Source: a virus (taxonomy: Duplodnaviria; Caudoviricetes). From it: a stretch of 62,768 nt of DNA. Of the stretch, positions 1,813 to 47,337 are shown one piece after another (the first letter of the stretch is position 1; every line of letters begins with the position of its first letter). The notes under the pieces are model-generated. The model saw only the letters and a program-made list of their open reading frames with translations. It did no database searches and was not told the origin of the DNA. The position numbers were made by a program, and so were the translations under genes. Where the stretch lies: positions 1 to 62,768 of the IMG/VR virus record IMGVR_UViG_3300027852_000042. One strand, 5' to 3'.

Positions 1813-3032
1813 TGGCTGAATCTGTTTTTGTGGGATATGGAGAGTTAGATCCAACATCGGGTGGGGGTCATAATTCCACTAGAACTAGCGATGGCCGAAT
1901 ACATGTCGTATATCATTCTGCACTCAGTCTTCGTTATCAATATTCTGATGATAACGGTCTAACTTGGTCAACCCCACTTACTTTAGCCACTAACACTCAG
2001 TATCCTCCCCTGTGCCAAATTATTTGCGATGAAGAGGATAACTTGTATGTTGTGGCGAATAATACTCCAGAGAACAACGATATTGGATTTTTCAAATATA
2101 ATGCTTCAACTCAGTCTTGGGAAACTATTAAGTGGTTAAGCTACCCAGGCCAATATTTTTCTCCACCTGTATCGATAGCAATTGCCCCAGATGGTGTAAT
2201 TTATGTGGTGGCAATGTGTGCACATGTTGCGATGCAGCAAGGATGCGCTGTAATTTATAGTGATGATAGGGGTGAAACTTGGAACGCTGCCGGGATAATA
2301 AGTTTAACACATTTTACATCGGCAGCAATTGCTGTGGGAACAAATGGAACTATACATATTCCATATGTTAACAGGGTTGCGGATCCTTGGTATACATACG
2401 AACTGGGGTACCTTAGTGGAACTCCGTTTAGTTGGGGAATAGAGATAGTAGACGCTGCAATAGCACCCATTAGAACGTACTATTACAACCCAAGAGTTAT
2501 TTTAGACATTAATGGTGATTGCCACATTCAATACCTTAGAAATTATAGGGATAATCCTGGTGGTGTTCAATATCGACACGCAAAAAAAGTAGTAACCTCT
2601 TGGGTAAAAACAGATATTTATGAGGGAACTATACAGGGTATATCGTATTATACGGCTTCAGGGTTTAGTCACACAAGAGAAGGTTTAATTTTAGCATCTA
2701 TACAGAAGGGGTTTCCTGATGGTGGGTTGTATATTTTTACAAGTGATGATGGTGGTGATACTTGGGTTGAGACTCAGGAGATAGAAAACCCCGGCGGTGT
2801 GTATCCTGGTTATAGATCTGACTTACTTTGGCAAAATTATCCAAGTAACTGTGAACCCTTGTCTGGGTTTGGATGTCTGATGGAGACGAACGCTGGTATT
2901 TATTGGAATACGGGTTGGACATGGCCCGGTCTTATGGGGCTCAAATATACCTTCACTCCAGAAACAAGGAAAAATAATTTTCTATCGAAGAACTTAAGTG
3001 TTAAGACTTTTGAGAATAGTATTGAGGTATAG
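1812..3032 (+). CDS. BNR/Asp-box beta-propeller (sialidase-fold) protein, putative receptor-binding
   Basis: Asp-boxes YSDDNGLTW, YSDDRGETW and TSDDGGDTW. Confidence 0.75.
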   Translation: MAESVFVGYGELDPTSGGGHNSTRTSDGRIHVVYHSALSLRYQYSDDNGLTWSTPLTLATNTQYPPLCQIICDEEDNLYVVANNTPENNDIGFFKYNASTQSWETIKWLSYPGQYFSPPVSIAIAPDGVIYVVAMCAHVAMQQGCAVIYSDDRGETWNAAGIISLTHFTSAAIAVGTNGTIHIPYVNRVADPWYTYELGYLSGTPFSWGIEIVDAAIAPIRTYYYNPRVILDINGDCHIQYLRNYRDNPGGVQYRHAKKVVTSWVKTDIYEGTIQGISYYTASGFSHTREGLILASIQKGFPDGGLYIFTSDDGGDTWVETQEIENPGGVYPGYRSDLLWQNYPSNCEPLSGFGCLMETNAGIYWNTGWTWPGLMGLKYTFTPETRKNNFLSKNLSVKTFENSIEV

Positions 3033-3035
3033 AAA

Positions 3036-4577
3036 GTGCCAATACCATATGAAATAAGACAATCAGTGATAAACAACGGCATAGTAATGAACGCTCCGAC
3101 AACGGATGTTGTGTGGAGTATTGGTCGGAATGTAGTATTTAGGTCTGGAACTGTCTCGAAAACACTAGGTAAGACGTTAATTACGACAACGCCAGACAGT
3201 AGGCCGGTTAGGGAACTGTTTACCTTTAGGGGGTTAGATAATATAGTCAGGACGGTCTGTTGCTGTGATTCTAGGTTATATCGATACATAGACGACTTTA
3301 CTGGAGTTGAAGATATTACCGGAGCCAACCCGCCTTCTGGAAATGAGAATTCTATTTGGAATTTTGCATTGGTTGCCGGTATACCGGTGCTATCTAATGG
3401 TGTTGATAAGCCATGGAAGTGGGACTACCGTGATCACATTAATGATGCTGAACAATTAAGTAATCTTCCCGTTGCCAATGCGATAACTACGGCATTAAAT
3501 AGGTTGATGCTTGGAGGTGTAACGAACTTTCCAAGTAGGGTTGCTTGGAGTTCAATAGGGGACCCTTCAAGTATAGAAATAACGCCAGAAACAACTGCCG
3601 GTAGGTCAGATATCATTAACCCGAACAATACTGGACACTCAACCATAGAGATAATTAGATCATTTAGTCAATCCGGAGAAAGAAAAAGGGTTTATACTGA
3701 TCATAGCATATGGCATGGAACCCCGGTTGAGTCTATCATTGACTTCAACTGGACATTATCTCCAGATGGAATAGGGTTGATTTCTCCAAAAGCCTTTGTC
3801 CATATAAATGGAATAGATTTTTTCATGGGGTGTGATGATTTTTATACTTACAGTTCGGAGTTAACTTCTATTGGGGAACCAATTAGAAACGCTGTGTTTC
3901 CAAACCTCAATAATGGTCAGGTGGGCAAGTCTTTTGCATATTATAAATCATCTACAAAGGAGATTTGTTTTTGTTTTCCGACAGGCTCTAATACTTATCC
4001 GGATACAATGGCAATCTTTAATCTTATTTTAAACAACTGGTCCTTTGCGGATGTTGATTATTCTGCACATACTTATGGGTGGACCCAGACATCATATGAG
4101 TGGGATGCTATACCTTATGGAAGTTGGGATACAATAGAAGACAGTCAGTGGGATAGGTTTGGAGACACTGGTGTCATCCCATACGAAGTAGTAGGCGACG
4201 AGAATGGTCAAATATTTAAGCTTGACGATGGGTATAACAATAATGGTAATGCCATAGAGGGATACATTGAAAGTGGTGATATCGTTGTGAAGAGGAGTGG
4301 AGCCAAGAAAAATATTACCGTATTACGGGTGGTCCCACACTTTAAGCCACATGAAGTTAAGACACCGGTTATGGTTCAGGTTGGGACTAGGAGAACCCTT
4401 GGCGATGATATAGAGTGGTCTCAACCTCAACCGTTTACCGTTGGTGTAAGTAAAAAGTTGGACTACAGAAAGGCTGGGAGGTATATTAGGTTCAGATTTT
4501 TTACCGACCAAGTGGACTCACCTTGGATATTGTCAGGATTTACATTTTACTTTAAGATAACAGGAGGGTATTATTAA
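3036..4577 (+). CDS. Podovirus tail tubular/nozzle (DNA-stabilisation-like) protein
   Basis: 513 aa; SNGVDKP, RVAWS, EICFCFP...AIFNL..NNWS and C-terminal GRYIRFRF motifs; lies just upstream of the ejection-protein block. Confidence 0.7.
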   Translation: MPIPYEIRQSVINNGIVMNAPTTDVVWSIGRNVVFRSGTVSKTLGKTLITTTPDSRPVRELFTFRGLDNIVRTVCCCDSRLYRYIDDFTGVEDITGANPPSGNENSIWNFALVAGIPVLSNGVDKPWKWDYRDHINDAEQLSNLPVANAITTALNRLMLGGVTNFPSRVAWSSIGDPSSIEITPETTAGRSDIINPNNTGHSTIEIIRSFSQSGERKRVYTDHSIWHGTPVESIIDFNWTLSPDGIGLISPKAFVHINGIDFFMGCDDFYTYSSELTSIGEPIRNAVFPNLNNGQVGKSFAYYKSSTKEICFCFPTGSNTYPDTMAIFNLILNNWSFADVDYSAHTYGWTQTSYEWDAIPYGSWDTIEDSQWDRFGDTGVIPYEVVGDENGQIFKLDDGYNNNGNAIEGYIESGDIVVKRSGAKKNITVLRVVPHFKPHEVKTPVMVQVGTRRTLGDDIEWSQPQPFTVGVSKKLDYRKAGRYIRFRFFTDQVDSPWILSGFTFYFKITGGYY

Positions 4578-4578
4578 A

Positions 4579-5124
4579 ATGGATGACCGTAGAACAAAAC
4601 ATGGGCTACCACCCCAAGAACTCAAGGCAAGTAAAGAAGGAAGAGAAATAATTCTAGGTATTGTTCCATGTTTGAATCATCTTTTCGTTGATAAGGCTTG
4701 GAACTTAATCAAACCACATGTAGAAAATATTGCAAGGCAAACCATGGGGGAGTATACCGCATATAAGGTTTGGGAGTCTATTTTTTATGGCTCCGCTCAT
4801 TTATACCTATGTTATATGGGAGATGAAAATATTGATTCTCAAGCCCTTGTATTGGACAGACTGGTAAACAACCCCAAAGAAAACTGGGTGGGATATTTCC
4901 TAATTAGACCAGATCCTACCTGTGTTCATATTTGGCAAGCACACATTCAGCCTGAATTCCAGGGTCATGATGTAATAGATATGGGGTTGGCATTTTTAGA
5001 GCAAAATGCAAGGAATATTGGAGCCCCAGCTTTATCTTTTTCGGCCTATCAGGATAGATGGAGCAAGGCTGCAAATACAATCGGATTCAAAAAAACGGCT
5101 ACGATCTATAGGAAGGAACTATGA
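4579..5124 (+). CDS. GNAT-fold-like protein between nozzle and pilot genes
   Basis: Pattern HIWQAHI.PEFQGH...LE..AR..GA..L.F; position matches acetyltransferase-like genes in podovirus virion operons. Confidence 0.5.
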   Translation: MDDRRTKHGLPPQELKASKEGREIILGIVPCLNHLFVDKAWNLIKPHVENIARQTMGEYTAYKVWESIFYGSAHLYLCYMGDENIDSQALVLDRLVNNPKENWVGYFLIRPDPTCVHIWQAHIQPEFQGHDVIDMGLAFLEQNARNIGAPALSFSAYQDRWSKAANTIGFKKTATIYRKEL

Positions 5125-5125
5125 G

Positions 5126-6034
5126 ATGGGCGGCAGTGGCGGTGGAAGTTACAATACAATAATAGAAGATCCTCTTCCGGATTATGCTCAATCACACGTT
5201 GAATCTTACTTAACTAGGGCTTTTACGCTTTCCGATGAGGCATATGCTCCCTATGATGGTGATGTTTATGCCGCTCAGAATGTGTATGAAACTGACGGTA
5301 TCACTGCCATAGCTACTAGGGCTACAAGTGGTCATGTAATCATCACTAAAGCTGAAACATATCTTCAGGCTAAGTTTGGTGGTAATCATGTTGGTGTAAA
5401 CGCGAAGTTAGATGATGTTTTTACTGCGGACAAAGAAGAACTTCTTGAGGATTTTAAAGAAAGTTTGGCCGGTATATCCAGACAGTTGAATGCTTCTGGA
5501 AATTTTGGAAGTGGTGCCCACCACGTCTTACAAGCCATAGCTTTAAAGGCGTTCGCGCGTCAACTTGGTCGTATCCCTATAGATGTATATGGCGAAGATC
5601 ATTTTGGTGAACGGAGAAACCAAGTCCATGGACTATCTCATGGTATACCATATGGTCAAGAATCTGCTAAAGATGCTATATTCCAAAGGCAGGCTGGCCT
5701 ATACCAGAGGGAATATACTCAAGGTGAATATGAAGCTAATTATAAAGACTGGAAAGACCAGGAGGTATCCAAGGTTAGAAGGTTGGAAATAATTGGTAAC
5801 GCTATTCGAGCAATGGTTGGAGCCAACATTGTTACAACTGAACCCTTCTATAGACCATCGACATTTCAGGAGATTGCTGGTTTGGCATTGACCGGATTGT
5901 CTTTGTACTCTAAGCTTTATAAGCCAGGGTCTCCCATGGTAGAATCTTCTACGGGTGGAGGTCCTTCTGGCAAGTTTCTTTCGTATCAAAATACTGGTAT
6001 GGCAGACATGGGTATTATGGGAGAGCCACAATGA
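5126..6034 (+). CDS. Putative pilot/ejection protein, paralogue 1
   Basis: Start moved to ATG 5126 after a GGAAGGA RBS (MGGSGGGS N-terminus); paralogous to 6031..6888. Confidence 0.65.
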   Translation: MGGSGGGSYNTIIEDPLPDYAQSHVESYLTRAFTLSDEAYAPYDGDVYAAQNVYETDGITAIATRATSGHVIITKAETYLQAKFGGNHVGVNAKLDDVFTADKEELLEDFKESLAGISRQLNASGNFGSGAHHVLQAIALKAFARQLGRIPIDVYGEDHFGERRNQVHGLSHGIPYGQESAKDAIFQRQAGLYQREYTQGEYEANYKDWKDQEVSKVRRLEIIGNAIRAMVGANIVTTEPFYRPSTFQEIAGLALTGLSLYSKLYKPGSPMVESSTGGGPSGKFLSYQNTGMADMGIMGEPQ

Positions 6035-6888
6035 GCGGAAGTACTGGATCGTCAACAACAACAGTAAAGAGATTGCCTTCGTATGCTGAGGTGTATGTCG
6101 AATCCTATCTTGATAGGTCTTTAGCTTTATCTGAGGAAGAATTTGTACCATATTGGGATGGCGGAGCCTTGACACATGCGGCACTTACAAGTGACGAAAC
6201 CGCTGGGGTTAACAAATTAGCCTTACGTGCTACTTCAGGAAACACTACAATTAATGGCGGTGCGGATCTAATCGAAGAGGTTTTAGATGGTGATTTCCTC
6301 GATGGAAGTGACTCTAAGTTTCAGACCATGATAGCACATGCTCATGATGAATTAATTGCAGCCGTTGACGAGGGTAAGGCCTTGCTTGGCGGCAATATGT
6401 ACTATATTGGAGATTTAATCGGTGAAAATTTAGCTCAAGACCTTTCGGTTAATACCGGGCCAGATGTTTCCGCAAAGATGCAAGCGATCATGTACCTCAT
6501 GAACTACAAAAATTCAAGGGGAATACAAGATGTTGTTTTACCGCACGGCATAAACTATGCCTCTCAACCATACCAAGATGCAGAGTGGTTGCGTGAGGCT
6601 GGTTTGTATTTGAGAGAGTGGGACCAAGATGAAATTGAAGACCAATATAAACGGTGGCAAGAAGTAGAAGCAGCGCAGGTTATAAAGCTTGAGGTGCTTG
6701 GTAATGCTATTCGTAGTATGGTTGGAACTCAGAGAAAAACTACCGAACCATACTACAAGCCAAGTAAGGCTGTTGGTGCCGTGGGTGGTGCCATAACTGG
6801 GGCTGCGATAGGGACTCAGATTAATCCAGGGTGGGGGACCGCGATAGGTGCTGTTGTTGGTGGCGTTGCTGGGCTTGTAGCTCAATAA
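6031..6888 (+). CDS. Putative pilot/ejection protein, paralogue 2, with C-terminal glycine zipper
   Basis: MSGSTGSSTTT N-terminus; C-terminal GAVGGAITGAAIG..PGWGTAIGAVVGGVAG. Confidence 0.7.
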   Translation: MSGSTGSSTTTVKRLPSYAEVYVESYLDRSLALSEEEFVPYWDGGALTHAALTSDETAGVNKLALRATSGNTTINGGADLIEEVLDGDFLDGSDSKFQTMIAHAHDELIAAVDEGKALLGGNMYYIGDLIGENLAQDLSVNTGPDVSAKMQAIMYLMNYKNSRGIQDVVLPHGINYASQPYQDAEWLREAGLYLREWDQDEIEDQYKRWQEVEAAQVIKLEVLGNAIRSMVGTQRKTTEPYYKPSKAVGAVGGAITGAAIGTQINPGWGTAIGAVVGGVAGLVAQ

Positions 6889-6902
6889 TATGGGGGTATG
6901 AA

Positions 6903-8732
6903 ATGGCTAGATATTATTTACCTGAAATCAAAGAAGAATACATAGGTAGTCCCGGGTCGTTTGGAGATAGTCGTATATTGCCAAAAATAAAACCCAAACC
7001 AAAACCAAAGTCTTTATTGGCAACTTCCCCCAGTCTTCGCTATAAAGATCCCACGGTGTATACCGATCCAAGAACAGGTAAACCGCTTCAAAAAGAGGTG
7101 CAGCCAGATGGAAGTACTCGCTTTGTTGAAGTTGACCCAATACCTCTAAGGTCAGATGAGGATTTAATGAACGTATTGTATAAACAAAAGCCAGGTACGT
7201 TTAGGTCACAACCTTCTCGTAGTGGTAGGAAACCCTCATTGCCGGTACGACTTACCGATACTTATCTACCTGATTGGCCTCCAGAAGATACTGCCTTGGA
7301 TGGCGTTGCGCCTTCGCCATATGATGAGGAGTTAAGAACTGTTAGGTCGAGACCCACCGACATTTCAGGTCTCGATGATATAGACCTGAGTAGCCTACGA
7401 AGACCTTCTCGGGAAACTAGAGAGACGCAACCAGAAAAGCCTAAAACACTTTTAGATAGATTAAAACTTGATATCTCCAAGGATGAAAGCAGGGCTCTAA
7501 CAGACGCTTTGTTATCAACAGGGTTAAGTCTGATGGCACAGGCCGGTCCATCTAAGTATCCTCAATCGTTTCTTAGTCAAGTAGGTAGGGCTGGATTAAA
7601 GGGGTTTGAACAATATCAAGTTACGGAAGAAGCTATTCGTAAGAATAAACTGGCAGAGGCGGCGGAAGCAAGAGCAGGATATGAATCTGAATTGGATTTA
7701 CTTAAAGAAGCAAGGGCTCAAGGTAAATATCCATACGAAATACAGAAACTAGAGAAAGAAGCAGAGAAGGCTGGTGTAGATATTGCTAAAGTTAAGGGTG
7801 ATCGATACGAAAAAAAGGGCGACTCAATATACTACACACACTATGATGACAAAACGGGTAGTTTTGTTTCAACAAAACAGGGTCCTGCCGATTCAAGTAA
7901 GGAAAGCATTGACAGGATAAAGAAATACGAAGCATGGGATAAGCATGTACAGGCAAACTTTAATAATAAAATAAAGGCATTGGGTGTTGAGGGGATGGCA
8001 ACCGAATTTTTCAGTAGGGTAATGGAAAATGTAAAGGCTGGAAGAACACCAAAGGAAATGAGGGATACGCTACATGCGTTGGTCGGGAGCGGTCGCGTTT
8101 CTGTTGATCCAGTAAAAGTCAAAGAACTGTACACAGCGTTAGACACAGTTCACGACATGGTAACTGAAGGTAAGGTAGCTATTGGAAAGAATGAGGATCC
8201 ATGGCAAACAGTCGAAGGGTTTGGACCTAAGTACAAAAAGGCCTTCCATACGAGAAATGTTAAGGATCAAAAGAAAATGTTTAAAGGATTAGAACTTTTA
8301 TTCGAAGATAAACCCAAGGCGTTAAAGGCTTTAGAACCATTAAAGGGCGGTGAATTGTGGACTACAGAGCAAATTGAAGGCGCAATGGATCTAACAGAAA
8401 AAGAACCCGGTGAAAAAGTGGATTGGGTTAAATATGTTTTAGCTAACAGGCTTTTGGGTAAAACTGCTGAAGAGTTTTATGCCAGTAAACATGTAACCCC
8501 AAAGGAAAGACGTAAGGCGTTGGCTAGAGAGTACTTTAGAAGGGGTGAATTATTGGACGAACGCCTAGGCTTGGCTCTTTTGCGTATAGATGAACCCAAC
8601 CTAGAAAAGTTTATGATAAGTCTTAAAAACTTCTTTGGAGTACAATTTGAAGAGAGATATCCAGGGCTTCCCCAAAGACACCCATTCATATTTGATTTTT
8701 CCGGAAAGAGGAAGGGTCCATTCCCTCGATAG
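6903..8732 (+). CDS. Putative internal virion/ejection protein
   Basis: Likely start ATG 6903; LLSTGLSLMAQAGPS..SFLSQVGRAGL.G motif followed by coiled coil; between the pilot genes and the giant gene. Confidence 0.6.
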   Translation: MARYYLPEIKEEYIGSPGSFGDSRILPKIKPKPKPKSLLATSPSLRYKDPTVYTDPRTGKPLQKEVQPDGSTRFVEVDPIPLRSDEDLMNVLYKQKPGTFRSQPSRSGRKPSLPVRLTDTYLPDWPPEDTALDGVAPSPYDEELRTVRSRPTDISGLDDIDLSSLRRPSRETRETQPEKPKTLLDRLKLDISKDESRALTDALLSTGLSLMAQAGPSKYPQSFLSQVGRAGLKGFEQYQVTEEAIRKNKLAEAAEARAGYESELDLLKEARAQGKYPYEIQKLEKEAEKAGVDIAKVKGDRYEKKGDSIYYTHYDDKTGSFVSTKQGPADSSKESIDRIKKYEAWDKHVQANFNNKIKALGVEGMATEFFSRVMENVKAGRTPKEMRDTLHALVGSGRVSVDPVKVKELYTALDTVHDMVTEGKVAIGKNEDPWQTVEGFGPKYKKAFHTRNVKDQKKMFKGLELLFEDKPKALKALEPLKGGELWTTEQIEGAMDLTEKEPGEKVDWVKYVLANRLLGKTAEEFYASKHVTPKERRKALAREYFRRGELLDERLGLALLRIDEPNLEKFMISLKNFFGVQFEERYPGLPQRHPFIFDFSGKRKGPFPR

Positions 8733-8738
8733 GAGTTA

Positions 8739-11700
8739 GTGATGCCACCTGAAATTCCATCAGATAGAGAATTTCTTAAAAGACTTAGAGCTATGGGGAA
8801 AACTGCCAAGGAAGAAATTGCTTCACCTTCTAAGGTTAACCTTAGTGATGTTCCCGGAAATCCGATAACCAAAGGCTTACCTCTTGTTCCAAAAGAAGAG
8901 CCCTATGGTGCTACCATTGAGGGTGATCAGTTTCATTTAACTAGATATAAACCACATGAACCTACTGTTGGAGAAGAGCCAAGGGTAAAATCTATAGGAA
9001 GACTTTTCCGTCAGGTTGGGGAAGGTGGTCGAACTATTGCTCAGAACTTGTTGGAACTTTCTAAGGGGATGGGAGAGAGTGAGGCGTTAAGGCAGGACGA
9101 CAAGGAAGATGAGGGGTTTTTACCTTACCTGAAGGAAGAATATTTAGGTGATTTTAAGCAGGGAACATCTCTTCTATCTAAACTGAAGGGTGCAGAAAGA
9201 TTTACACCTGCGAAGCTTGGCCCCAAAGTATTTAAAGATGTCGTTACCAGGGTTATCGATAAGATCCACCCTCCTGCATGGGAAAAGCTGTCCAAGAAAA
9301 GCAGAGAGGCCCTTGAGACCGACATAATGACCACCCCCGAGGCATACAAAGAGTCTCTTGGTTTCTTTGAAGACGCTGCAAATATGGCTCCACAGTTACT
9401 TACTCTGTTGGGGACCACCTATCTATTTAAAACTCCGGTAGCAGGTAGCCTTTTTATAGGTACGCAAATTGCCGGTGGTCAATATGGGGAACTATCAAGG
9501 CAAGGTGTTGACCCGAGACGTGCCATTGATTTGTCTGTTTTAAATGCAACACTGCAAACAATTCCAGAAGTATTGTCCGCTAAAATAGCCATTAAGGGGT
9601 TTAAGCAGGTAGCAGAAAGAACGGACATTGCTAATAGGTTGATAAATCTAACTAAAACCTTAGCTATTGCTCCACCGGTTGAGTTCTTTACCGAGTGGGT
9701 GCAGAAATATCCGGAGGAGATCACAAATATAGCTGCTTTAAATCCAGACAAGGGAACCCTTGAGAGGACGAAATTACTTTTCGACAACCTTGGTAGGGTT
9801 AATAGGGAGGGTGCCTATGAAGGTTTAGTTGCAGCCTTTATGACCTCTTTCGTTCCGTTTGCTGGACTTGTACGGACCGGTAAGTCTCATACCATGTCAG
9901 AGAAGGAGGCAAACAACCTTAGTGCTCAAGCAAAGATACTGCGAATAGGTGGAGACAATATCGATATCGACCCAGAGGTGGGGTCGAGAATCCTTGAGAT
10001 AGGTAACATTGTAGATGAAGCTATAGACAGAGTAGGCAAGGGAAAGTCTGTTGTTTTTAACAAAAGGGATGTCAATAGGATCTCAGAACTTCAGGGTGAA
10101 GTAAGGGAATTAACTGAAAGTTTTGAAGCTGATGAGGCAGTAAGGGCAACAGAAGAAGAGGTGGTTGTTGAGCCTGAAGCGGAGGTGCCACCAGTAGTAG
10201 AAGAAGATGTTACTGTAGAACCAGAGGTTGAGGCAATACCTCCAGTGGAGGGTGGGGTAGCGGAACCACCGGTGGCGGAATCTGAAGTTGTTCCCCAACA
10301 GACCTATGATGAGGTTCAGGCTGAAATTGACGATACAATAGATGCTTTAATGGAGGATGGGTTATCTTTTGAAGAAGCTGATAGCCATCCAAGTGTTGAG
10401 CAACTTTACGAAACCAGAAATAAAATTGGGCAAAAAGAACTTGAGCAATCCTACAACGAAATATCTCCCATCATAAACAAAACCACCGGTGATCAAAAGC
10501 AAACAGATTCTATTCTTAGTCGTATTTACAGTCTTGACCCAAAAGATTTAACCGGACAATATTTTGCTTCCGAATATACTGTTGAGCAAGTTGATAATAG
10601 GGAGGAAACCAGGGGGAAAATACTCCGTAAGATTGTGGAAGATTATGGTAGAGAACACAATCTTGATATGGATGGAGTTTTCTCAGGTGCTTCCGGGTTT
10701 ACAGCGAAAGGCCAAAGAAATTTACTTAAAAAATTAACGGACAAGGCGAACAAAATTGAAGAAGATGTTTATGGATATTTTCACGAAGACATTGATGTGG
10801 TTCAAGAAGTGCAACAGGTAGAAGAACAGCCATTAATTGAAGAAGAAAAGAAAACTGATGGAGTTTCTGTAAGAAAATTACCTATTGCCAAGCCACCCAT
10901 CAAACATGTAGCCAGGAAAGATAAGGAAATAGTAGACACAGAAAAGTTTTACGTGTTGAATGAGAAGACTGGCAAGTTCAAGAAGGTGGAAGTTAAGACA
11001 CGTAAGCAGATACCCGGATTCGAAACTTTCGATTTGTTTATACATAAGACAGGTGATGTGTGGGCTATAGCTGAGGGGTTAACCGGGAAGGAGTATGCTA
11101 CTGGTACAACACAGAAGGAAGCAATGGAGTCATTTTTAGAGAAAACTACTCCAGCAAAACTTACGGCAGACTTGAAGCGTATAACCAAAACCGGCAAGAA
11201 GGTACCTGTTACGGGTAAACCCATTCCCGATACTAAGCTTTCACCTAGATATACTAAGGATAAGAAAGAGACTCCTCCCAAGAAGAAAGAGACTCCTCCC
11301 AAGAAGAAAGAGACTCCTCCCAAGAAGAAAGAGACTCCTCCCAAGAAGAAAGAGACTCCTCCCAAGAAACTAGAGGATAAGGTATCCGATACTCAAAAGA
11401 AACTGGAAGAATTAAGAGCCTTGAGTGATACCCTTCCTGAAAATTCTGAGGCAAAGGCTGAGGTTGACCGGCAAATAGAAAATGAGATACTAAAGATAGG
11501 AAAGGAGGAACAGAAGCCAGCCCCAAAAAGGAAATCTGACAAGAAAAAACCCCCAAAGAAGATAGTTACTAGAAAGAAAACCACAAAACCAAAAACTCAG
11601 CCAAAGAAAAAGAAGTTAGTTCCCCCGTTTTTTAAGGAAACTGAAGAGGCTAATGCTTCAACACATGCAGCCGCATGGGTTAAGAACCTGTCCACCAAAG

Positions 11701-14700
11701 ACTTTAATGCATTTACTGATACATATCAAGAGGGTTTGATACGTATCAGTGAAGATAAGGAAGGTCTTTCCAGGGAAGAAATAGTAAAAGAAATAGAGTT
11801 TATGCAACAGCATGGACTGTGGGGAGAGGCAATAAAGACAAGAGGTGGGGAAGAATATTTACTCGTAGTGAGTGATAGTGCAGATGAACTGAATAGGAAG
11901 CGAGAAGGTCTACCTCCTGGTCCAGAGACCAATAAAGAACTTGTAGACAGAAGAGTAAACCTTGGTGATCGTAAGATAGTTGAAGATCTTTTAGAGAAAG
12001 GTAGTAAGAAGGGACTTTCTAAGGCCGAGACAAAGAAGCTACAGACCCATATTTTTCACGATACGTTAACCGGCATACCTAGCCATAGGGGATGGGAAGC
12101 CAAAAAGCGATTACTTCACCAAGCTTTTCTTGATGGAGATGGTACTAAGTGGCTTAACGATAATGTGGGTTACGATGAGGGTGGAGATGTCCTGCTCGTA
12201 GCTATGGGTAATGCTATTAAAAACGCCACTAAGTTTGGCTCAAGGTTTCACGGGGATGAGTTCCAGTATGAAGCTTACTCAAGGACTGAGCTTAAGGAAG
12301 TAGCTGAAAAAATACACCAATACATGAAAGATAATCCTCTGAAAATAACCATGCCCAATGGAGAGGTTAGATATTATGAGGGTAAGGTAACGATAGGGCT
12401 TGGTAGAACTGAAGCTGAGGCCGAAAGGTCTATGAAAACACAAAAGAAGCTAAAGAAAGAGGATAGTGAATTATCCGGAAGGGGTGATGAGCTTACCAGG
12501 GTGTACCCTGAAGGAGATAAAGTAAAGGAAGGAAAAGAAAAAAAGGTTACTGATGATTTAGAGGGTAAGGTAGACACTGTAAAGAAACTTCTCAAAGATG
12601 AGGGTGGTGAAATAAACATAGACCCCAAAGCTCTCTTTGATGGACTGGTTGACGTTGGTAAGATTGTTATAAATAAGGGCGCTAAAACCTTAAAGAGTTT
12701 CAGTCGGGCAATGCGTAATCTGTTCGATGGTAAAACATGGAACAGGATTAAGAGCCTTGTGCCAAAGGTATTTAAGCGGTCTAGTTTAGAATTCACAGAA
12801 ACAGATGGGTTTAATCAACCTGACTACAAACAAACAGTCGAAGGTATTGACAGGGCAGAGGGTAATATTCCTCACGAAAAACCCATTGCTAAGGTTATTG
12901 AAGGAACGAAGAACTTTTTCGTTGGTTTTACTAAGCAGTGGGTCACACTGCCAGAAAAGGCAGAGTTTGCAAAGGCAAAATCGGAACTGCTTAAACAGGC
13001 GGGGCTCCCTGAGTATGGATGGATTAGAGGTAAGAACACAACCGATAATATCTTCGGAAAGATAGACAGGGAAACAGCTATAAAGGTTCGTAATGTTATG
13101 ATCATTAAGGATCTTAATGAAAGTATCGAAAAAATGGGGGAACGCGGGGAAGATATTTCCGAAAAAAAGTTTCCATTTAACCTGACTAGGGACCGGATTG
13201 TTACTCTTAATGAATGGGCAGATGAAACACTTGAAAACAATCTTGAAGTTAAGACCGTGGCAGATAAAGCATGGGCTGAGACCTTAAGGTTAAATGGAGA
13301 GCTTGTTAAGGCTTATGCTGCACTTGACCCATCACTTGGTAAGTGGATAGGAAACCGAGTGACTCGGCAACACTACTTTCCTCATATGATATTGAAACAT
13401 ACTCCATCTATACCCGGCATTCGTGGAGCCCAAGGATTGAAGATACAACAATATAGAACCCAACTAAAAACAAGGTTCGGGTCGGCTGAAGATTACAATA
13501 CTAACATACCAGAAGTGATGTTGGTATCCTGGGGGCAAGTCGAAGCTGACATAGAGATTGCTAAAAGTCTTAGTAGAATGGAGAAGGAGTATAATGTTAC
13601 AGAAGAACTAAGGGCCGGATTAAATGAGTTAAAGTTAAGCGTTAAAAAAGGATTAACTTGGAGGTCAGGGTTCCTATCTGAATCTCCATTCTTTGGTCAG
13701 GAGATCGATACACCTTCGGAGCTAATGGCTGAATTGTGGGCAATCGGTAAAAAGCGGGGGAAGTTAATTGATAGTGGTGAGATTAAAGACAGCGATTGGG
13801 TTAGATTTGAAAATGAAACCAAGATAATTCTTAGAAGCTTACGAGACAAGATAGGATTATATAGAAACGCCCTCTCCGACCCAACATTTTACCAACAAGA
13901 AGAGCAGAGGTTGGCAGAATGGTATGAAGAGAAGCAGGAAGGTAAACTCTCTGAAGAAGACCAGACTGCCATGGAGGAATATGGTGTAGACATAAGAGAA
14001 GTGCTTGGTGATCAATGGAATGAACCTACACTCGGGTATATGTCTCAATCTGTAAGTGAGTTTCAGGCAGCATTACTACAGGGTGATGTTAATGCAACCG
14101 GTCAATGGTTCAGAGAGAAGATGTTCCCAGGATATGAGACTGTAAACGTAAGAGACATGATGTACTATGCTCATACTGTTGCAGACGATTTAGTTAAGGA
14201 AATCTTGGACGGTCTTTCTGTTAACATAGAAGGTGTTGATTTGAATAAGGTCCTTGTCCGTTCGGATCCGATTGCATGGGTAATTCCTAAAGAAATTGCT
14301 GATACTGTTGAACATATAAAAAGAGAAAAGTTAAAGGCTGGGCTCCAGGGGCCGATAGAAACTTTAGCTATAGAGATGACTAAGTTTGTGAGGGGATATT
14401 TTTTATATGCCCCAGAAAACTTCCCAAGGTATATTATAAACAATACTGTAGCTGATTCTACCTTCATGCTTGGTATAGTTCCTAGCGCGGTGAAGAAAAA
14501 ATATGTTACCCTTGCTAGTAAAATGTTAAGTGCATTGAGTAACCCTAACAAACTGGAGGGTCTTACTGGAAAACAAAAGACCTTACTCCGAGAGTTTTTT
14601 GTTAGGGGCGGACGTTCTGCCGGGTTTACCAACTTTGAATTTGGAGTAAGGGTTCCCCGCCCAAAGTGGAAGGGGTTTAAGACTAAAAAGAAATCAGTAG

Positions 14701-16121
14701 TTGAGTTGCCAGTTTCCGGTGTAAGTACATATATGAACGGGGTGCATGCTGCTAATACATGGACTGAGGTTAACCGTAGACTTGTTGGGTTTTTAGCTGC
14801 TTACGATATGCTAACAAGTGAAACGAAAAAGAAATCTCATTGGGTTTCTCGCGCTGAATTCATAGATGCTCAACCTACAAACTACGATAAGGCCTATCAT
14901 TTAGCAAATGACTTAATGATATCATACGATAAAACGTCAGAAACAGGTAGGAAGCTTGGGAAGTTAAGTCTTATTTTCTATTCGTTTAGGGAGGGTAATG
15001 TAAGAAGATTTTTTCATATGTTTCGGAATGCAAAGATAGATAGCACAGAGGCACAGGCTATAGCAAAGATGGCGTTAGGACCAAGTGTTAAAGTTGGTAC
15101 GCAGACTGCCACGACAATTGGTATAAACTTTTTTAGGTTGGCCGGGCTCCAGGTAGCTGCTTTTCTTTGGAATACCCTTGTTTTCCCAGATGCCGAGAGA
15201 GAGCTTGCTAATGATGTACGATCTAGGATACACTTCATTTATCACCACAATAAAGAAACCGGGGTAACAAGATTCTATGATACTTACGATTCTTTACACG
15301 AAATTTTCAGGTTAATCGGGTTGGCACATTTAGGTAATAAGGTAGATGGTGGGTGGAAGAACATAGTAAGAGACATTGCCCTTTCCCCTATCAACGAAGC
15401 TTATGGGTTGTTGAATCCATTTATTAAGATAGGATTAGAAGAGATTCTTGGTATGAGTCTGTGGCCTGAAGTTCAAGACCCTCGATATATAAAAGATCGT
15501 ATTGAATATTTCATGCGAATGTGGAAGAAAGATGTTGAGTATGCATGGTTAACTGACAAGCCAGATAGGGGATTCCTGAAAGAAAAGGTTAGGCGGATAC
15601 TTTTCAAGGAAATTGATCTTGGAGAGGTGGCGTATTTTAAAACCCTTAAGACTCAGGGTGATTTTTTGGACACGAAGGGAGTGCCACACTTAAGGTTTGG
15701 TTCGACTAAAGGGAGTAAGGCTTTATATTACTGGAAGAAAGCAATTGTCTTGAACGACAAGAAGGCAATAGAGAAGTATTCCAGGGAATATATAAAGTGG
15801 TCGGTTGAAAATAACATGGAACCAAAAGATGTGGTTGATATAGCAAAGTCCTTGTCTCCTATGAATGTTGTGTCTACTAAATATCTTGATGAGTTTCATT
15901 CTCAACTTACATCTTCTGAGTCCAGAACAATAAATACCGCGATGAAGTATTACCAAAGCTTATTTATGACTGATAATTTTATGGAGCGTTTAGACAGATC
16001 AAAACGTGAGGCTGCTAGATATTTTATGGGTTCCCTTGAAGATGATACCGAGATTGATATAAGAGAATTGCGTGACTATTTGGATGTATGGGTGTCTCCA
16101 CAGTCTGAAGGCACGGAGTAA
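8739..16121 (+). CDS. Giant (2460 aa) polyvalent-type internal virion protein with a GGDEF-like domain and LPD38-like C-terminus
   Basis: Last gene of the ejection block; DTLTG...DGDGTKWLND..G...GD.LL...RFHGDEF; YFPH and NPFIK..LE...G motifs in the C-terminal half. Confidence 0.8.
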   Translation: MMPPEIPSDREFLKRLRAMGKTAKEEIASPSKVNLSDVPGNPITKGLPLVPKEEPYGATIEGDQFHLTRYKPHEPTVGEEPRVKSIGRLFRQVGEGGRTIAQNLLELSKGMGESEALRQDDKEDEGFLPYLKEEYLGDFKQGTSLLSKLKGAERFTPAKLGPKVFKDVVTRVIDKIHPPAWEKLSKKSREALETDIMTTPEAYKESLGFFEDAANMAPQLLTLLGTTYLFKTPVAGSLFIGTQIAGGQYGELSRQGVDPRRAIDLSVLNATLQTIPEVLSAKIAIKGFKQVAERTDIANRLINLTKTLAIAPPVEFFTEWVQKYPEEITNIAALNPDKGTLERTKLLFDNLGRVNREGAYEGLVAAFMTSFVPFAGLVRTGKSHTMSEKEANNLSAQAKILRIGGDNIDIDPEVGSRILEIGNIVDEAIDRVGKGKSVVFNKRDVNRISELQGEVRELTESFEADEAVRATEEEVVVEPEAEVPPVVEEDVTVEPEVEAIPPVEGGVAEPPVAESEVVPQQTYDEVQAEIDDTIDALMEDGLSFEEADSHPSVEQLYETRNKIGQKELEQSYNEISPIINKTTGDQKQTDSILSRIYSLDPKDLTGQYFASEYTVEQVDNREETRGKILRKIVEDYGREHNLDMDGVFSGASGFTAKGQRNLLKKLTDKANKIEEDVYGYFHEDIDVVQEVQQVEEQPLIEEEKKTDGVSVRKLPIAKPPIKHVARKDKEIVDTEKFYVLNEKTGKFKKVEVKTRKQIPGFETFDLFIHKTGDVWAIAEGLTGKEYATGTTQKEAMESFLEKTTPAKLTADLKRITKTGKKVPVTGKPIPDTKLSPRYTKDKKETPPKKKETPPKKKETPPKKKETPPKKKETPPKKLEDKVSDTQKKLEELRALSDTLPENSEAKAEVDRQIENEILKIGKEEQKPAPKRKSDKKKPPKKIVTRKKTTKPKTQPKKKKLVPPFFKETEEANASTHAAAWVKNLSTKDFNAFTDTYQEGLIRISEDKEGLSREEIVKEIEFMQQHGLWGEAIKTRGGEEYLLVVSDSADELNRKREGLPPGPETNKELVDRRVNLGDRKIVEDLLEKGSKKGLSKAETKKLQTHIFHDTLTGIPSHRGWEAKKRLLHQAFLDGDGTKWLNDNVGYDEGGDVLLVAMGNAIKNATKFGSRFHGDEFQYEAYSRTELKEVAEKIHQYMKDNPLKITMPNGEVRYYEGKVTIGLGRTEAEAERSMKTQKKLKKEDSELSGRGDELTRVYPEGDKVKEGKEKKVTDDLEGKVDTVKKLLKDEGGEINIDPKALFDGLVDVGKIVINKGAKTLKSFSRAMRNLFDGKTWNRIKSLVPKVFKRSSLEFTETDGFNQPDYKQTVEGIDRAEGNIPHEKPIAKVIEGTKNFFVGFTKQWVTLPEKAEFAKAKSELLKQAGLPEYGWIRGKNTTDNIFGKIDRETAIKVRNVMIIKDLNESIEKMGERGEDISEKKFPFNLTRDRIVTLNEWADETLENNLEVKTVADKAWAETLRLNGELVKAYAALDPSLGKWIGNRVTRQHYFPHMILKHTPSIPGIRGAQGLKIQQYRTQLKTRFGSAEDYNTNIPEVMLVSWGQVEADIEIAKSLSRMEKEYNVTEELRAGLNELKLSVKKGLTWRSGFLSESPFFGQEIDTPSELMAELWAIGKKRGKLIDSGEIKDSDWVRFENETKIILRSLRDKIGLYRNALSDPTFYQQEEQRLAEWYEEKQEGKLSEEDQTAMEEYGVDIREVLGDQWNEPTLGYMSQSVSEFQAALLQGDVNATGQWFREKMFPGYETVNVRDMMYYAHTVADDLVKEILDGLSVNIEGVDLNKVLVRSDPIAWVIPKEIADTVEHIKREKLKAGLQGPIETLAIEMTKFVRGYFLYAPENFPRYIINNTVADSTFMLGIVPSAVKKKYVTLASKMLSALSNPNKLEGLTGKQKTLLREFFVRGGRSAGFTNFEFGVRVPRPKWKGFKTKKKSVVELPVSGVSTYMNGVHAANTWTEVNRRLVGFLAAYDMLTSETKKKSHWVSRAEFIDAQPTNYDKAYHLANDLMISYDKTSETGRKLGKLSLIFYSFREGNVRRFFHMFRNAKIDSTEAQAIAKMALGPSVKVGTQTATTIGINFFRLAGLQVAAFLWNTLVFPDAERELANDVRSRIHFIYHHNKETGVTRFYDTYDSLHEIFRLIGLAHLGNKVDGGWKNIVRDIALSPINEAYGLLNPFIKIGLEEILGMSLWPEVQDPRYIKDRIEYFMRMWKKDVEYAWLTDKPDRGFLKEKVRRILFKEIDLGEVAYFKTLKTQGDFLDTKGVPHLRFGSTKGSKALYYWKKAIVLNDKKAIEKYSREYIKWSVENNMEPKDVVDIAKSLSPMNVVSTKYLDEFHSQLTSSESRTINTAMKYYQSLFMTDNFMERLDRSKREAARYFMGSLEDDTEIDIRELRDYLDVWVSPQSEGTE
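11262..11366 (+). repeat. Perfect 21-bp x5 tandem repeat encoding (KKETPPK)5
   Basis: aagaaagagactcctcccaag repeated five times with no spacers. Confidence 0.95.
12048..12460 (+). other. GGDEF (diguanylate cyclase-like) domain within the giant protein
   Basis: Ordered motifs HDTLTGIPSHR, FLDGDGTKWLND, GYDEGGDVLL, RFHGDEF (12243..12263), VTIGLG, AERSMK..K. Confidence 0.85.
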
Positions 16122-20568: not shown

Positions 20569-21096
20569 ATGCTACCCAGCGTAACAACAATCATTAATTC
20601 TAAATTTCCTTTTGTGACAGATGAGGACTTAAAGTTAGCTCAATACCGTGGGACTGAGGTTCATTCAGCATGCCATGCTTATGTGACCAATACGTGGTAT
20701 CCTCTCGATAGAGAGTTTGGTGGATACATTGAGTCTTTTACCCTTTGGTATGACTTAATGGTTGAGGAGTTTATCTTTGGAGAGGAGAGGATTATTGATT
20801 ATGTTCTTGGCTTCTCAGGTAAACCTGATTTAGTGGTTAAGTTAATGGGGGATAAGGGGTTTAGTCTTTGGGATATAAAAACCTCTGCGGCTATGATGAG
20901 GAGTTACGAGATTCAGGTTGCCGGATATAAACACTTAATCCAAAACATAGAAGGAATACCTATAGAAAGATATGGAGGATTACAGTTGTTTAAGGATGGA
21001 CGAACAGCCAAAATAAAGGAGTATCAAAACTTTGTGTACTCGTTTGATGTTTTAATGGCACTTCTAACAATACATAGGTGGGAGAAAAATCTATGA
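20569..21096 (+). CDS. PD-(D/E)XK (Cas4/exonuclease VIII-like) nuclease
   Basis: PSVTTI, RGT.VH, G.PD, DIKT, Q..GY motifs. Confidence 0.8.
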   Translation: MLPSVTTIINSKFPFVTDEDLKLAQYRGTEVHSACHAYVTNTWYPLDREFGGYIESFTLWYDLMVEEFIFGEERIIDYVLGFSGKPDLVVKLMGDKGFSLWDIKTSAAMMRSYEIQVAGYKHLIQNIEGIPIERYGGLQLFKDGRTAKIKEYQNFVYSFDVLMALLTIHRWEKNL

Positions 21097-21872
21097 CAAA
21101 TTTTTTTGAGGACTTATTTTCAGAGGAAACTCAAGAGGATAGCGTTGTTGATGCTGAGTTCGTAGAAGATAATATTGTTGTACTTCCGGAACTTAACATA
21201 ACTGACAGCATGGTTAAGGAAACTCTCGGGGAAATTAAGGCTGTATTGATTGAAAAGTATTACGGGAAAATAGAACAGCTTGAGACTTTAGCTAATAACC
21301 ACCTAATCAAAGATGAGGCTACTGAGGTTCAGGCGGTTGACATGGTTTCTCAATTAAAGGAGATGCGAAACACACTGGAAACCAAGAGAAAGGATATCAT
21401 AAAGGTTCCAGGATCATACGTGAACGGCGTAAACGCTATCGTTAAGCCCTTCCGTGACAAAATAGATACCATTTGTAAGATAAAGAACAAAGACCTCTTA
21501 GAGTATCAAAGAAAGGTTCGTGAGGAAAGAAAGAAACAAGAAAAGAAAGCCGCCGAGGTTATCGAGAAAGTAAAGAAAGATACAGAGGAGGAAGCTAAGA
21601 GGGCCGGGATAGATCCAGGTGTATTTGACATACAGGTACCATCATTATCAAAGGATAAGGTTACGGTAGGTCAAACAGGTGGTACTGCTACTATCAAGGA
21701 AGAGTGGGTATATGAAGTTGTTGACATAAAAGAAGTACCCGTGGAATTAATTGAAGTCATAGATAAGGAGGTGAAGAAGTTAATAAAGGCTGGTACTAGA
21801 AACATTCCAGGACTTAATATTTATCTTGATGATAAGTTGAAGACCCGGAAGGCGAGGAAGAAAAAACCTTAA
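21093..21872 (+). CDS. Coiled-coil recombination-block protein
   Basis: Probable start ATG 21093; long coiled coil and C-terminal W..EVVD...VP......K..I..G...IPG motif. Confidence 0.6.
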   Translation: MTNFFEDLFSEETQEDSVVDAEFVEDNIVVLPELNITDSMVKETLGEIKAVLIEKYYGKIEQLETLANNHLIKDEATEVQAVDMVSQLKEMRNTLETKRKDIIKVPGSYVNGVNAIVKPFRDKIDTICKIKNKDLLEYQRKVREERKKQEKKAAEVIEKVKKDTEEEAKRAGIDPGVFDIQVPSLSKDKVTVGQTGGTATIKEEWVYEVVDIKEVPVELIEVIDKEVKKLIKAGTRNIPGLNIYLDDKLKTRKARKKKP

Positions 21873-21887
21873 CATGGAGGAAGTTAA

Positions 21888-23138
21888 ATGGGTGACATTG
21901 TAGAGTATAAGTCGAAAGATGGGACCGATATTCAACTCAGTTTTGATATCGTTCGGAATTATCTTGTGCAGGGTAAGCCTAACCTTGTGCAAGACGGTGA
22001 GATAGTTTATTTTATGGGTGTGTGTAAGGCCAGGGGGTTAAACCCGTTCAAAAAGGACTGCTATCTTATCAAGTATTCAGACAAAACATCCGCACAGATA
22101 ATAACCAGTATCGATTACTTCCGGAGCCGAGCCAGGGCACAAGACGATTGTACTGGGTGGAGTGTTGGGTTGCTTGTTTACGATCCCGAAACAAAGATTG
22201 TTTCTGATACTAAGGGATTGGTTCTCCCTGGGAGTACAGTTCTTGGTGCTTGGTTTGAAGCTAAACCTGAAGGCTGGGAAAATGTACATAGGAGAGAGGT
22301 TAATCTTAGTGGGTATCTTCAGTATAAATCTGACGGTAAACTCACTAAGTTTTGGCTGCCAGAGAAACAGCCATCGCAGATTATGAAAGTTGCCGAGTCT
22401 CAAGGGCTAAGAGCTATATGGCCTGATCAATTTCAGAATTTGTATACAGATGGTGAAGCTGACTTGGGGGGCATGCCCAATGTAACTATAGGTGGGGCTT
22501 CACTCCCAAACCCTCCCGATCCTCAATATTCAGGGGTCTTGCCCCCACTTACCAAAAAGAGAACATATACCGAGCCAAAAAACAAGCCCAAACCTGACCC
22601 CAGTAATGATAAAAAACAGGCAGATGATTCCGAAACCTTTGACCTTATCGTTGCTAAGAAAGCTGATAAGGAGCAAATGGACAAGTTCCTGGAGGTTTGT
22701 TCTGGTAAGGCCAATATGACGGTTGCTCAGATTAAAACTCAGGCAATACGTAACATCGGAAAGTTCATGGGGCAGTATGAAAAGTGGGCTGTTGATATGG
22801 ATGTCCAGAAGAGAAGGGAGAACACTGAACAACTTGCGCCAAAGGATAGAGCCAGAGGAAGGAATGTAAAAAAGGATGAAGAAGAGGATCCACCGCTTAA
22901 AATGAGACCGGAGGAGGTTCTTGACAGTAAAAAAACAGATCCAAAAACTGACCCCGAGGAAACCAATGATACGGAAACTGAACAGGGTGTTCCAATAGAT
23001 CCAGGTCCTACTGCTGATGTGGTAAAGTGCAATAAGAACGATGGCGATATGATGCTTGCGGAGTATTGCATGAACTCGTGCGAAGGTAGGTTTAACTGTG
23101 ATAGTTTGCAGTCCTACCTCGCCGGTCAATATTCATAG
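21888..23138 (+). CDS. bet: Bet/RecT single-strand annealing recombinase
   Basis: F...CK..GLNPF.KD.YLIKY, S.DYF..RA, GAW, KVAESQ.LR..WP motifs; two genes downstream of the exonuclease. Confidence 0.85.
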   Translation: MGDIVEYKSKDGTDIQLSFDIVRNYLVQGKPNLVQDGEIVYFMGVCKARGLNPFKKDCYLIKYSDKTSAQIITSIDYFRSRARAQDDCTGWSVGLLVYDPETKIVSDTKGLVLPGSTVLGAWFEAKPEGWENVHRREVNLSGYLQYKSDGKLTKFWLPEKQPSQIMKVAESQGLRAIWPDQFQNLYTDGEADLGGMPNVTIGGASLPNPPDPQYSGVLPPLTKKRTYTEPKNKPKPDPSNDKKQADDSETFDLIVAKKADKEQMDKFLEVCSGKANMTVAQIKTQAIRNIGKFMGQYEKWAVDMDVQKRRENTEQLAPKDRARGRNVKKDEEEDPPLKMRPEEVLDSKKTDPKTDPEETNDTETEQGVPIDPGPTADVVKCNKNDGDMMLAEYCMNSCEGRFNCDSLQSYLAGQYS

Positions 23139-47327: not shown

Positions 47328-47337
47328 GCTTAAAACA

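Follow-up and report, generated by a model that had tools for sequence, protein, structure and literature searches.

GGDEF domains have already been reported in phage polyvalent proteins. Iyer et al. (2017, J Bacteriol, PMC5512222) argued that polyvalent proteins are packaged in the virion and injected into the host, and proposed that the GGDEF domains among them interfere with host nucleotide signalling. An example given by these authors is a prophage protein of Acetonema longum (WP_004096050.1), which combines GGDEF, SNF2, methylase, zincin and ART domains. The domains within one polyvalent protein are often functionally unrelated, and GGDEF domains are described in the same source as "not very widespread" (PMC5512222). 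The protein treated here is a further case from an uncultured phage, known from a virus record in IMG/VR that is 62,768 bases long. The whole record was analysed and is called the window. Its largest feature is a giant open reading frame (ORF) at 8739..16121 on the + strand, with 2460 codons open from a GTG. Residues 1086-1240 or so of the product are, with near certainty, a GGDEF domain. In the reading preferred here, the giant ORF encodes a polyvalent protein of the phage type, placed where an ejection block has its gp16-like gene, and its GGDEF domain makes cyclic dimeric guanosine monophosphate (c-di-GMP) after delivery. Taken as a whole, this chain of claims falls a little short of an even chance.

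A GGDEF domain in an injected polyvalent protein is a prediction of 2017, and the window protein adds a member to it. A sequence-only reading of the same DNA had proposed that the virion injects an unregulated cyclic-dinucleotide synthase. Because of the precedent of Iyer et al. (PMC5512222), that idea is less novel than it had been rated. It is partly supported: the parts that can be checked by computation all held, and delivery, enzyme activity and product are inferred.

Two other groups of proteins resemble the window protein. The first is the cellular diguanylate cyclases, such as PleD, WspR, DgcZ, TpbB/YfiN and T. maritima TM1788. They have the same fold as the window domain (Z 14-16, root-mean-square deviation about 2 Å), and they share with it the residues for metal, guanine and phosphate as well as the D-E-F of the signature. 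The window domain differs from them in having no sensor or receiver domain, no RxxD inhibitory site and a His for the first Gly of the signature. It is also embedded mid-chain in a protein of 2460 residues.

The second group is the large ejected proteins of podophages, namely T7 gp16, Pa223 gp53/LUZ24 gp50 and the N4 virion RNA polymerase. Like the giant ORF, each is the product of the last and largest gene after the hub or needle and is a large protein with an enzymatic module. In these phages the module is a transglycosylase or a polymerase, whereas in the window protein it is a predicted second-messenger synthase.

Identity of the GGDEF Domain

The sequence-only reading had placed a GGDEF-like domain at 12048..12460, within the 2460-residue protein. 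This stretch corresponds to residues 1104-1240, and profiles, structure prediction with AlphaFold2 (AF2) and structural alignment with VIA-align all confirm it. Together with the stalk-like helix that leads into it, the GGDEF fold covers 11994..12458 (+), that is, residues 1086-1240, or residues 12-166 of the model.

At the level of Pfam the signal is borderline, because PF00990 is seen on an excised piece alone. On that 250-residue piece it scores 25.8 bits (E 1e-5), above the curated cut-off of 23.8. NCBIfam DgcN scores 36.8 bits on the piece (E 2e-9), and PHROG 5594, a family of unknown function, matches the GGDEF stretch at E 5.8e-11. In a phmmer search of the PDB, the top match is 4urs_A, a diguanylate cyclase of Thermotoga, at E 0.0012.

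The doubt left by the borderline Pfam match is removed by related sequences. A family profile built from 25 shorter members matches 48 distinct PDB sequences, with a best E of 1.6e-16. Nearly all of these carry GGDEF or diguanylate-cyclase names; the exceptions are 3pjw, which is a binding protein for cyclic dimeric GMP, and the ammonium transporters 8qj3/8qpf. The AF2 model of residues 1075-1265, made from the family alignment, has a predicted local distance difference test score (pLDDT) of 90.9 and a predicted template modelling score (pTM) of 0.84. It shows the GGDEF fold. GGDEF entries make up all 40 of the PDB matches listed by Foldseek (ranks 1-49), and all 50 of the matches listed by VIA-align contain a GGDEF domain. 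The alignment to 3ign has a Z of 16.0 and a root-mean-square deviation of 1.8 Å over 133 residues. Some of the matches (SiaD, WspR, and DgcB with its coiled coil) extend over the helix ahead of the domain, beginning at model residues 12-16. In the viral structure library BFVD, the model is matched best by a segment of a large viral protein (TM 0.74), and the next matches are phage proteins with a GGDEF annotation.

Catalytic Residues and Inhibitory Site

The GGDEF motifs named in the sequence-only reading are all present, in order, between residues 1108 and 1236. They begin with D-T-L-T-G (1108-1112) and the metal/guanine motif D1132-G-D1134-G-T-K1137-W-L-N1140-D1141 (12132..12161, +). These are followed by G1149-D1150-V-L-L, by the signature loop H-G-D-E-F (1171-1175; 12249..12263, +) with R1169 ahead of it (R1169-F-H-G-D-E-F), by T1218-I-G1220, and by A1228...M1232...K1236. 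The metal/guanine motif aligns to the matching motif of 4urs_A, and D1132, K1137, N1140, D1141, D1150, R1169 and G-D-E-F all lie opposite their canonical counterparts in that enzyme. One difference from 4urs_A is a gap of about 10 residues in the window domain, after the D-x-L-T-G helix and ahead of the first strand. D1132 is taken here to be metal-binding and N1140 to be guanine-contacting; the roles assigned to metal, guanine and phosphate residues are assumed from the structures of PleD.

Relatives of the domain were collected by an exhaustive phmmer search with the 250-residue piece against 1.84 billion cluster representatives. The search gave 721 proteins at E <= 0.001, 178 of them at E <= 1e-10, and these form the clade discussed below. 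Conservation was scored in a MAFFT alignment of 151 segments, drawn from the best 150 of the 721 matches, three further homologues and the query. P0002, a database protein 99% identical to the giant ORF, was dropped.

The catalytic residues are nearly invariant in this alignment. D1132 and N1140 are each kept in 150 of the 151 segments, D1141 in 147, K1137 in 146 and D1134 in 140. Within the signature, E1174 is present in all 151, G1172 and D1173 in 150 each and F1175 in 134, and K1236 again is kept in 150. All of these near-invariant residues, and D1150 as well, are present in the window protein. On this alignment, the clade is under purifying selection at its catalytic residues.

Other positions vary. 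The residue equivalent to D1150 is Asp in 120 members and Asn in 24. The most common signature is SGDEF (89 members), followed by GGDEF (20), HGDEF (11) and KGDEF (9). Instead of the Arg ahead of the signature, 110 members have a His.

The RxxD inhibitory site (I-site) is lacking in nearly all of the clade. In the window protein its position, five residues ahead of the signature, reads N-A-T-K (residues 1162-1165; 12222..12233, +), which bears out the earlier statement that no RxxD precedes the signature. An RxxD at the canonical spacing is found in 3 of the 151 members, the other 148, window protein included, being without it. Judged by this motif, the clade as a whole is without product inhibition. 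Nor is a sensor domain present, as had also been read: a scan of the whole protein gave no sensor-type Pfam family at E <= 1.

A His at the first signature position is not disqualifying, because an HGDEF mutant of VCA0965, a cyclase with the signature AGDEF, still raised c-di-GMP (Hunter et al. 2014, PMC3974145). According to the same study, the natural SGDEF enzyme ECA3270 is active as well. In a literature search for "HGDEF", this mutagenesis work was the sole relevant paper among those listed. With its full set of catalytic residues, the GGDEF domain of the giant ORF is likely to be catalytically active. It would be expected to work like active diguanylate cyclases, in the sense of a likeness to these enzymes and not of a proven membership.

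The flanks of the clade are unlike those of ordinary GGDEF domains. A helix with the pattern R-K-R-V-x-E-M-S/T-P-E-E-M-R lies before the domain, and the pattern G-x-R-A-x-R-G-E-x-P-P-G-V follows it. These motifs may serve as a stalk, or may mark a site of docking or processing.

The Clade and Its Domain Architectures

Many members of the clade are giant proteins. Of 152 proteins stored besides the query, 151 were matched in a local phmmer rerun at E <= 1e-3, and 114 of these are longer than 1000 residues. In a first batch of giant homologues, 16 of 17 pass PF00990. In a second batch 6 of 7 stored family proteins pass, and P0004 fails. The partner domains in the first batch are LPD1, LPD22, LPD23, LPD38, ART-PolyVal, Kinase-PolyVal, MuF_C, InPase, RadC, ddrB-ParB, SLT and a Sbno-type helicase. 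Partners of this kind are the hallmark of the polyvalent proteins of Iyer et al. (PMC5512222).

A local census with hidden Markov models covered 219 stored family proteins (153 from the database and 66 ORFs from IMG/VR, with some redundancy possible). InPase (PF18823) is the most frequent of the partners listed here, with 38 proteins, followed by LPD38 (27), ART-PolyVal (25), LPD1 (19), Sbno helicase (14) and MuF_C (7). InPase occurs 39 times in these proteins, and in 18 cases no more than 50 residues separate it from the GGDEF domain. Such an arrangement fits the removal of pyrophosphate released by a cyclase. Adjoining InPase and GGDEF domains are seen, for example, in P0024, P0026, P0028, P0069 and the IMG/VR ORF L027:8009-19849.

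A 2H/Acb1-like phosphoesterase domain occurs in 2 of the 219 proteins, in both directly upstream of the GGDEF domain. It lies at residues 956-1057 of P0116 and at residues 11-114 of P0035, 35-40 residues ahead of the GGDEF domain. For the P0116 copy the scores are 38.3 bits with 2_5_RNA_ligase2 and 26.2 bits with the anti-CBASS family Acb1, the latter just under the cut-off of 27. Nucleotide-degrading and nucleotide-making domains are thus neighbours in these two proteins.

Another member, P0015, has an SLT transglycosylase domain at its N-terminus. T7 gp16 carries an SLT domain too.

Two further modules of the giant ORF are shared with the family. The N-terminal one is a Gly/Ala-rich hydrophobic module at 9315..9875 (+), residues 193-379, with a weak hydrophobic peak at residues 360-380. 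It is found in 24 of the 219 family proteins, the window protein and 23 others, and is upstream of the GGDEF domain in every family protein that has both. The C-terminal one is a helical module of about 600 residues at 14166..15962 (+), residues 1810-2408, which is present in 8 of the 219 (the window protein and 7 others). It is found in other giant phage proteins too, among them the Sbno-helicase giants P0003, P0004 and P0116 and ORFs of the IMG/VR loci L010, L013 and L035. The giant ORF consists of these two modules, the GGDEF domain and other stretches, joined by low-complexity linkers. Of its modules, the GGDEF domain is the one with an assigned activity.

Because its three modules occur in proteins of the polyvalent class, the window protein belongs with that class. 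Like the polyvalent GGDEF proteins of the literature, it is a giant multidomain phage protein encoded among virion genes. Its modules are common to proteins with LPD, ART-PolyVal, MuF_C and InPase domains, and homologues of its GGDEF domain have SNF2 or Sbno helicases, ART, MuF_C, InPase and LPDs as partners. It differs from them in its HGDEF signature, in having no Pfam LPD or PolyVal family (none at E <= 1 in a scan of the whole protein), and in its place in a podophage ejection block. The 721 cluster representatives also differ from the "not very widespread" domains of Iyer et al. (PMC5512222). To judge from the searches made here, the literature understates the size and the uniformity of the clade.

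The clade is also seen in bacterial genomes, where it occurs in Acidobacteriota, Gamma- and Deltaproteobacteria, Clostridia and others. At least 222 of 600 candidate stretches were confirmed there, and the best 80 were kept. A scan of IMG/VR gave 66 loci with the domain. In 58 of these the stop-to-stop frame that holds it is 665 residues or longer (median 2236), many frames being cut by the ends of the loci.

Stand-Alone Phage Members

The clade also has short members that stand alone. In a tblastn search with P0011, a more typical member than the window protein, matches were found in 59 cultured phage records. Stand-alone members include MP1412_43 of a Pseudomonas Yuavirus (156 residues), proteins of the Bordetella Vojvodinavirus phages CN1 (152 residues), CN2 and LK3, and gp350 of Bacillus phage G (254 residues). 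The proteins of phages CN1 and G are among the BFVD structural matches of the window domain, and MP1412_43 is 33% identical to that domain (E 2e-9). The stand-alone proteins share the clade motifs D-x-D-S-L-K-W-I-N-D-N-L-G-H and SGDEF. Among the matches listed, which cover 30 of the 59 cultured records (with annotation read for MP1412 alone), no giant virion protein with the clade domain is found.

The gene of MP1412_43 (locus L148, 3977-4447; signature SGDEF) has a KlcA-type anti-restriction gene directly downstream of it and is outside the virion block. Because of this location, its product is probably made after infection and not delivered. Small stand-alone members from cultured Yuavirus phages would make it practicable to find out the product of the clade.

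Gene Context and Delivery

The giant ORF lies in a block of virion genes on the + strand. The block runs from about 48.8 kb to the end of the window and then from 1 to about 19 kb. Pfam and PHROG identify in it genes for a terminase large subunit, an SU10 portal-like protein (weak), a capsid-like protein, an SU10-adaptor-like protein (weak) and a BNR-repeat protein, all on the + strand. A gene for a GP4 fiber-tail adaptor of the Gp77 type, known from podophages, is found on the same strand (Pfam, 52 bits). By its gene content, the window phage looks like a podophage.

The part of the block that matters most for delivery begins with a tail-hub-like virion protein of 513 residues at 3036..4577 (+). 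It is a homologue of gp56 of the Bruynoghevirus LUZ24, and matches PHROG 3287 ("virion structural protein") at E 1e-63. In tblastn it matches 125 phage records including LUZ24, to which it is about 25% identical over 98% of the query (E 2e-22). The hub homologue is followed by genes for proteins of 181, 342, 285 and 633 residues and then by the giant ORF. In LUZ24 too, small proteins come after the gp56 homologue; gp51 (505 residues) and gp50 (1055 residues), both annotated as virion proteins, come next. The equivalents in phage Pa223 are assigned, in a cryo-EM preprint, as an outer-membrane channel, a periplasmic tunnel and gp53, a gp16-like inner-membrane protein of 1055 residues; all three were detected in virions by mass spectrometry (10.1101/2025.06.11.659172).

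Three genes at 5006..8732 (+), for the proteins of 342, 285 and 633 residues, are candidates for smaller ejection proteins, since their order parallels that of LUZ24 and Pa223. The product of 5006-6034 matches PHROG 4287 ("DNA ejection protein") at E 5e-9, and that of 6031-6888 has a Gly-zipper and a hydrophobic C-terminus. Both are candidate outer-membrane or periplasmic ejection proteins. The two are paralogues, and each matches both of their counterparts in the related phage L027, described below.

The giant gene is the last and largest of the block that follows the hub homologue, and it is on the same strand as the virion genes. This is the arrangement that the sequence-only reading had recognised as that of a podovirus, and the gene orders of LUZ24 and Pa223 match it. 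By analogy with these phages, it is somewhat more likely than not that the giant protein is packaged in the virion and delivered. Its packaging rests on gene order and analogy because it has neither similarity to known ejection proteins nor a MuF, portal or SLT domain.

The IMG/VR locus L027, from a related phage, is syntenic with the window. Of the window genes that lie between 350 and 8732, eight have a homologue there (1812-3032 is the exception). At the place of the giant ORF it has a giant ORF of its own, of 3947 residues, in which a GGDEF domain (SGDEF), an InPase-like domain, a methyltransferase, an SNF2 helicase and an HExxH motif can be recognised by eye. In a BLASTP comparison of the two giants, the GGDEF domain alone matches (26% identity, E 9e-15). 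Since this is the sole detectable similarity between them, the cargo appears to have been shuffled at this locus while the GGDEF domain was kept.

A tblastn search of 50,697 phage records gave no match for the portal-like protein, for the whole giant ORF or for the GGDEF piece of 191 residues. By this measure, the window phage belongs to a lineage remote from those in culture.

Proposed Mechanism

The process would start in the virion. Copies of the giant protein packaged in the head would leave with the DNA; alternatively, the protein would act late in the producing cell. Two GGDEF domains would then be paired, either by an oligomeric form of the protein or by the stalk-like helix. Each domain would hold GTP-Mg through D1132, D1173/E1174, N1140, D1150, K1236 and K1239, and the paired domains would condense two GTP to c-di-GMP.

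With no RxxD I-site, the enzyme would escape shut-off by its own product. The resulting surge of c-di-GMP could reprogramme the host in its motility, pili, exopolysaccharide or susceptibility to superinfection, or could disturb a nucleotide-based defence. A prediction of the complex of two domain copies with 2 GTP and 2 Mg scored 0.22 and 0.13, against a mark of 0.42.

Alternative Explanations

Several observations weigh against delivery of an active cyclase by this protein. The domain does not have the canonical GG(D/E)EF signature, because the first Gly is a His, and tolerance of His was shown in just one, unrelated enzyme, VCA0965 (PMC3974145). Position 1239 is Lys in the window protein and Arg in 132 of the 151 clade members, and both of the clade flanks (residues 1090-1103 and 1243-1255) are degenerate. 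PF00990 was not reported in a scan of the whole 2460-residue protein, and a six-frame search of the whole record with it gave nothing. As for delivery, BLASTP of the window block against LUZ24 gp50, gp51 and gp53 gave no convincing similarity, the best pairwise match of the giant ORF to gp50 being one of E 0.002 over 130 residues of the C-terminal part. The Pfam scan gave no MuF, portal or SLT domain in the giant ORF. The record, classed as linear and with both ends inside ORFs, is rated 75% complete. The literature searched gave no report of a bench test or an activity for a GGDEF domain of a virion-borne or polyvalent protein.

The alternative that survives best is that the domain is active and the protein is not delivered. 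It would then act late in the producing cell, on lysis timing, the biofilm matrix or phage exclusion, or would be a late protein that is not part of the virion. Late genes are expressed in the producing cell anyway, and the lack of an ejection-protein homologue or of a MuF, portal or SLT anchor agrees with this explanation. So do the stand-alone homologues of Yuavirus and Vojvodinavirus, whose genes are outside the structural block, and a hyper-biofilm reported for lysogens of Bordetella phage LK3 (PMC8471281, which describes no enzyme test). Such an explanation is nevertheless unlikely. The gene is inside the virion block at the gp16-like position, relatives of its product carry MuF_C, SLT and LPD38, which Iyer et al. 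tied to packaged proteins (PMC5512222), and 2460 residues would be a costly form for an activity for which an enzyme of 150 residues suffices.

Another alternative, improbable as well, is that the domain is an active nucleotidyltransferase with a different product. This could be another cyclic nucleotide of two or more units, linear pppGpG, or a nucleotide that acts as decoy or competitor. It would jam or pre-empt cyclic-oligonucleotide-based antiphage signalling (CBASS), type III CRISPR or Panoptes-like defence, and not rewire c-di-GMP physiology. The distance of the clade from solved cellular cyclases, to which it is about 20-28% identical, leaves room for such a product, as do the prevalence of SGDEF, the His that 110 of 151 members have in place of the Arg ahead of the signature, and the Asn at the guanine-reading Asp position in 24. 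GGDEF-related minimal CRISPR polymerases are known to make other cyclic nucleotides (Panoptes paper, PMC12657218). The window protein, in contrast, retains both guanine-contacting residues, N1140 and D1150, and the 48 PDB profile matches are reckoned to be GGDEF-domain or c-di-GMP-related proteins, with no Cas10 or CRISPR polymerase among them. The 2H/Acb1-like phosphoesterase that immediately precedes the GGDEF domain in two family proteins and the KlcA anti-restriction gene next to the stand-alone Yuavirus members also point towards a role in defence. Neighbouring domains are weak evidence, because those of a polyvalent protein are often functionally unrelated.

The weakest alternative, a catalytically dead domain that serves a structural ejection protein as a module for GTP or c-di-GMP binding, scaffolding or oligomerisation, can claim the non-canonical signature, Lys1239 and the degenerate flanks, as well as the precedent of degenerate GGDEF domains described as receptors or, in YybT, as an ATPase (PMC3974145), and is very unlikely given that the acidic and base-contacting residues are all kept and near-invariant over 151 diverged members, as expected of an enzyme, that there is no I-site to bind c-di-GMP, and that the coupling with InPase in relatives points to turnover.

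Significance

Phages are known to counter nucleotide signalling by degradation, as with Acb1-type enzymes, and by sequestration, as with sponges. A virion-borne synthase would reverse this tactic, in that the phage would write a second messenger of its host upon entry. If delivery of an active cyclase is correct, this would be the first case in which a virus injects a signalling-nucleotide synthase instead of a degrading enzyme or a sponge. A few unregulated molecules could then stop motility or pili, block superinfection or blind nucleotide-based immunity.

What the present analysis adds to the 2017 prediction is a large and coherent clade with conserved catalytic residues, no I-site and a frequent fusion to a pyrophosphatase. 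It also adds the observation that a GGDEF domain is the sole detectable common part of the giants of two related podophages. A wider generalisation would be that the clade consists of widespread virion-delivered second-messenger synthases, which raise c-di-GMP or a related nucleotide within minutes, before phage genes are expressed. This extension is rather unlikely.

Other Features of the Giant ORF and the Window

Start of the giant ORF. The database protein P0002 is 2438 residues long, so the true start of the giant ORF (P0001) may be about 22 codons further in. Three further, distant giant homologues were found in the database search.

Repeat linker. A perfect tandem repeat of 21 bp in 5.1 copies lies at 11262..11368 (+). 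It codes for a Lys/Pro-rich linker about 230 residues ahead of the GGDEF domain, and its perfection suggests a recent expansion or a variation in copy number.

C-terminal module. Across the 8 sequences that have it, this module shows 26 invariant columns. A word-based search for homologues among proteins of 363-1157 residues gave no match at E <= 0.001. Its look-alikes in the ESM Atlas are viral clusters, one of them with LPD38. An AF2 model of residues 1800-2460, made from an alignment of 8 rows, is all-helical, with a mean pLDDT of 54.8 and a pTM of 0.39; it was too poor for a fold search.

Rejected matches. The whole giant ORF gave solely sub-threshold and implausible matches to Pfam (Rpp20, HBS1_N, Med9). 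A weak match of the excised piece to crAss_CARGO2 was disregarded (12.3 bits, where the cut-off is 27). The giant ORF was also considered as a tape measure or tail fibre, an idea dropped in view of its podophage-like context and polyvalent relatives.

Neighbouring genes. The window has no tRNA genes. Other genes have ordinary phage functions. An exonuclease and a RecT-like protein form a recombination pair at 20569-23138, a DUF3150 gene lies at 24244-25110 on the - strand, and a thymidylate-synthase-like gene is found at 47305-48009.

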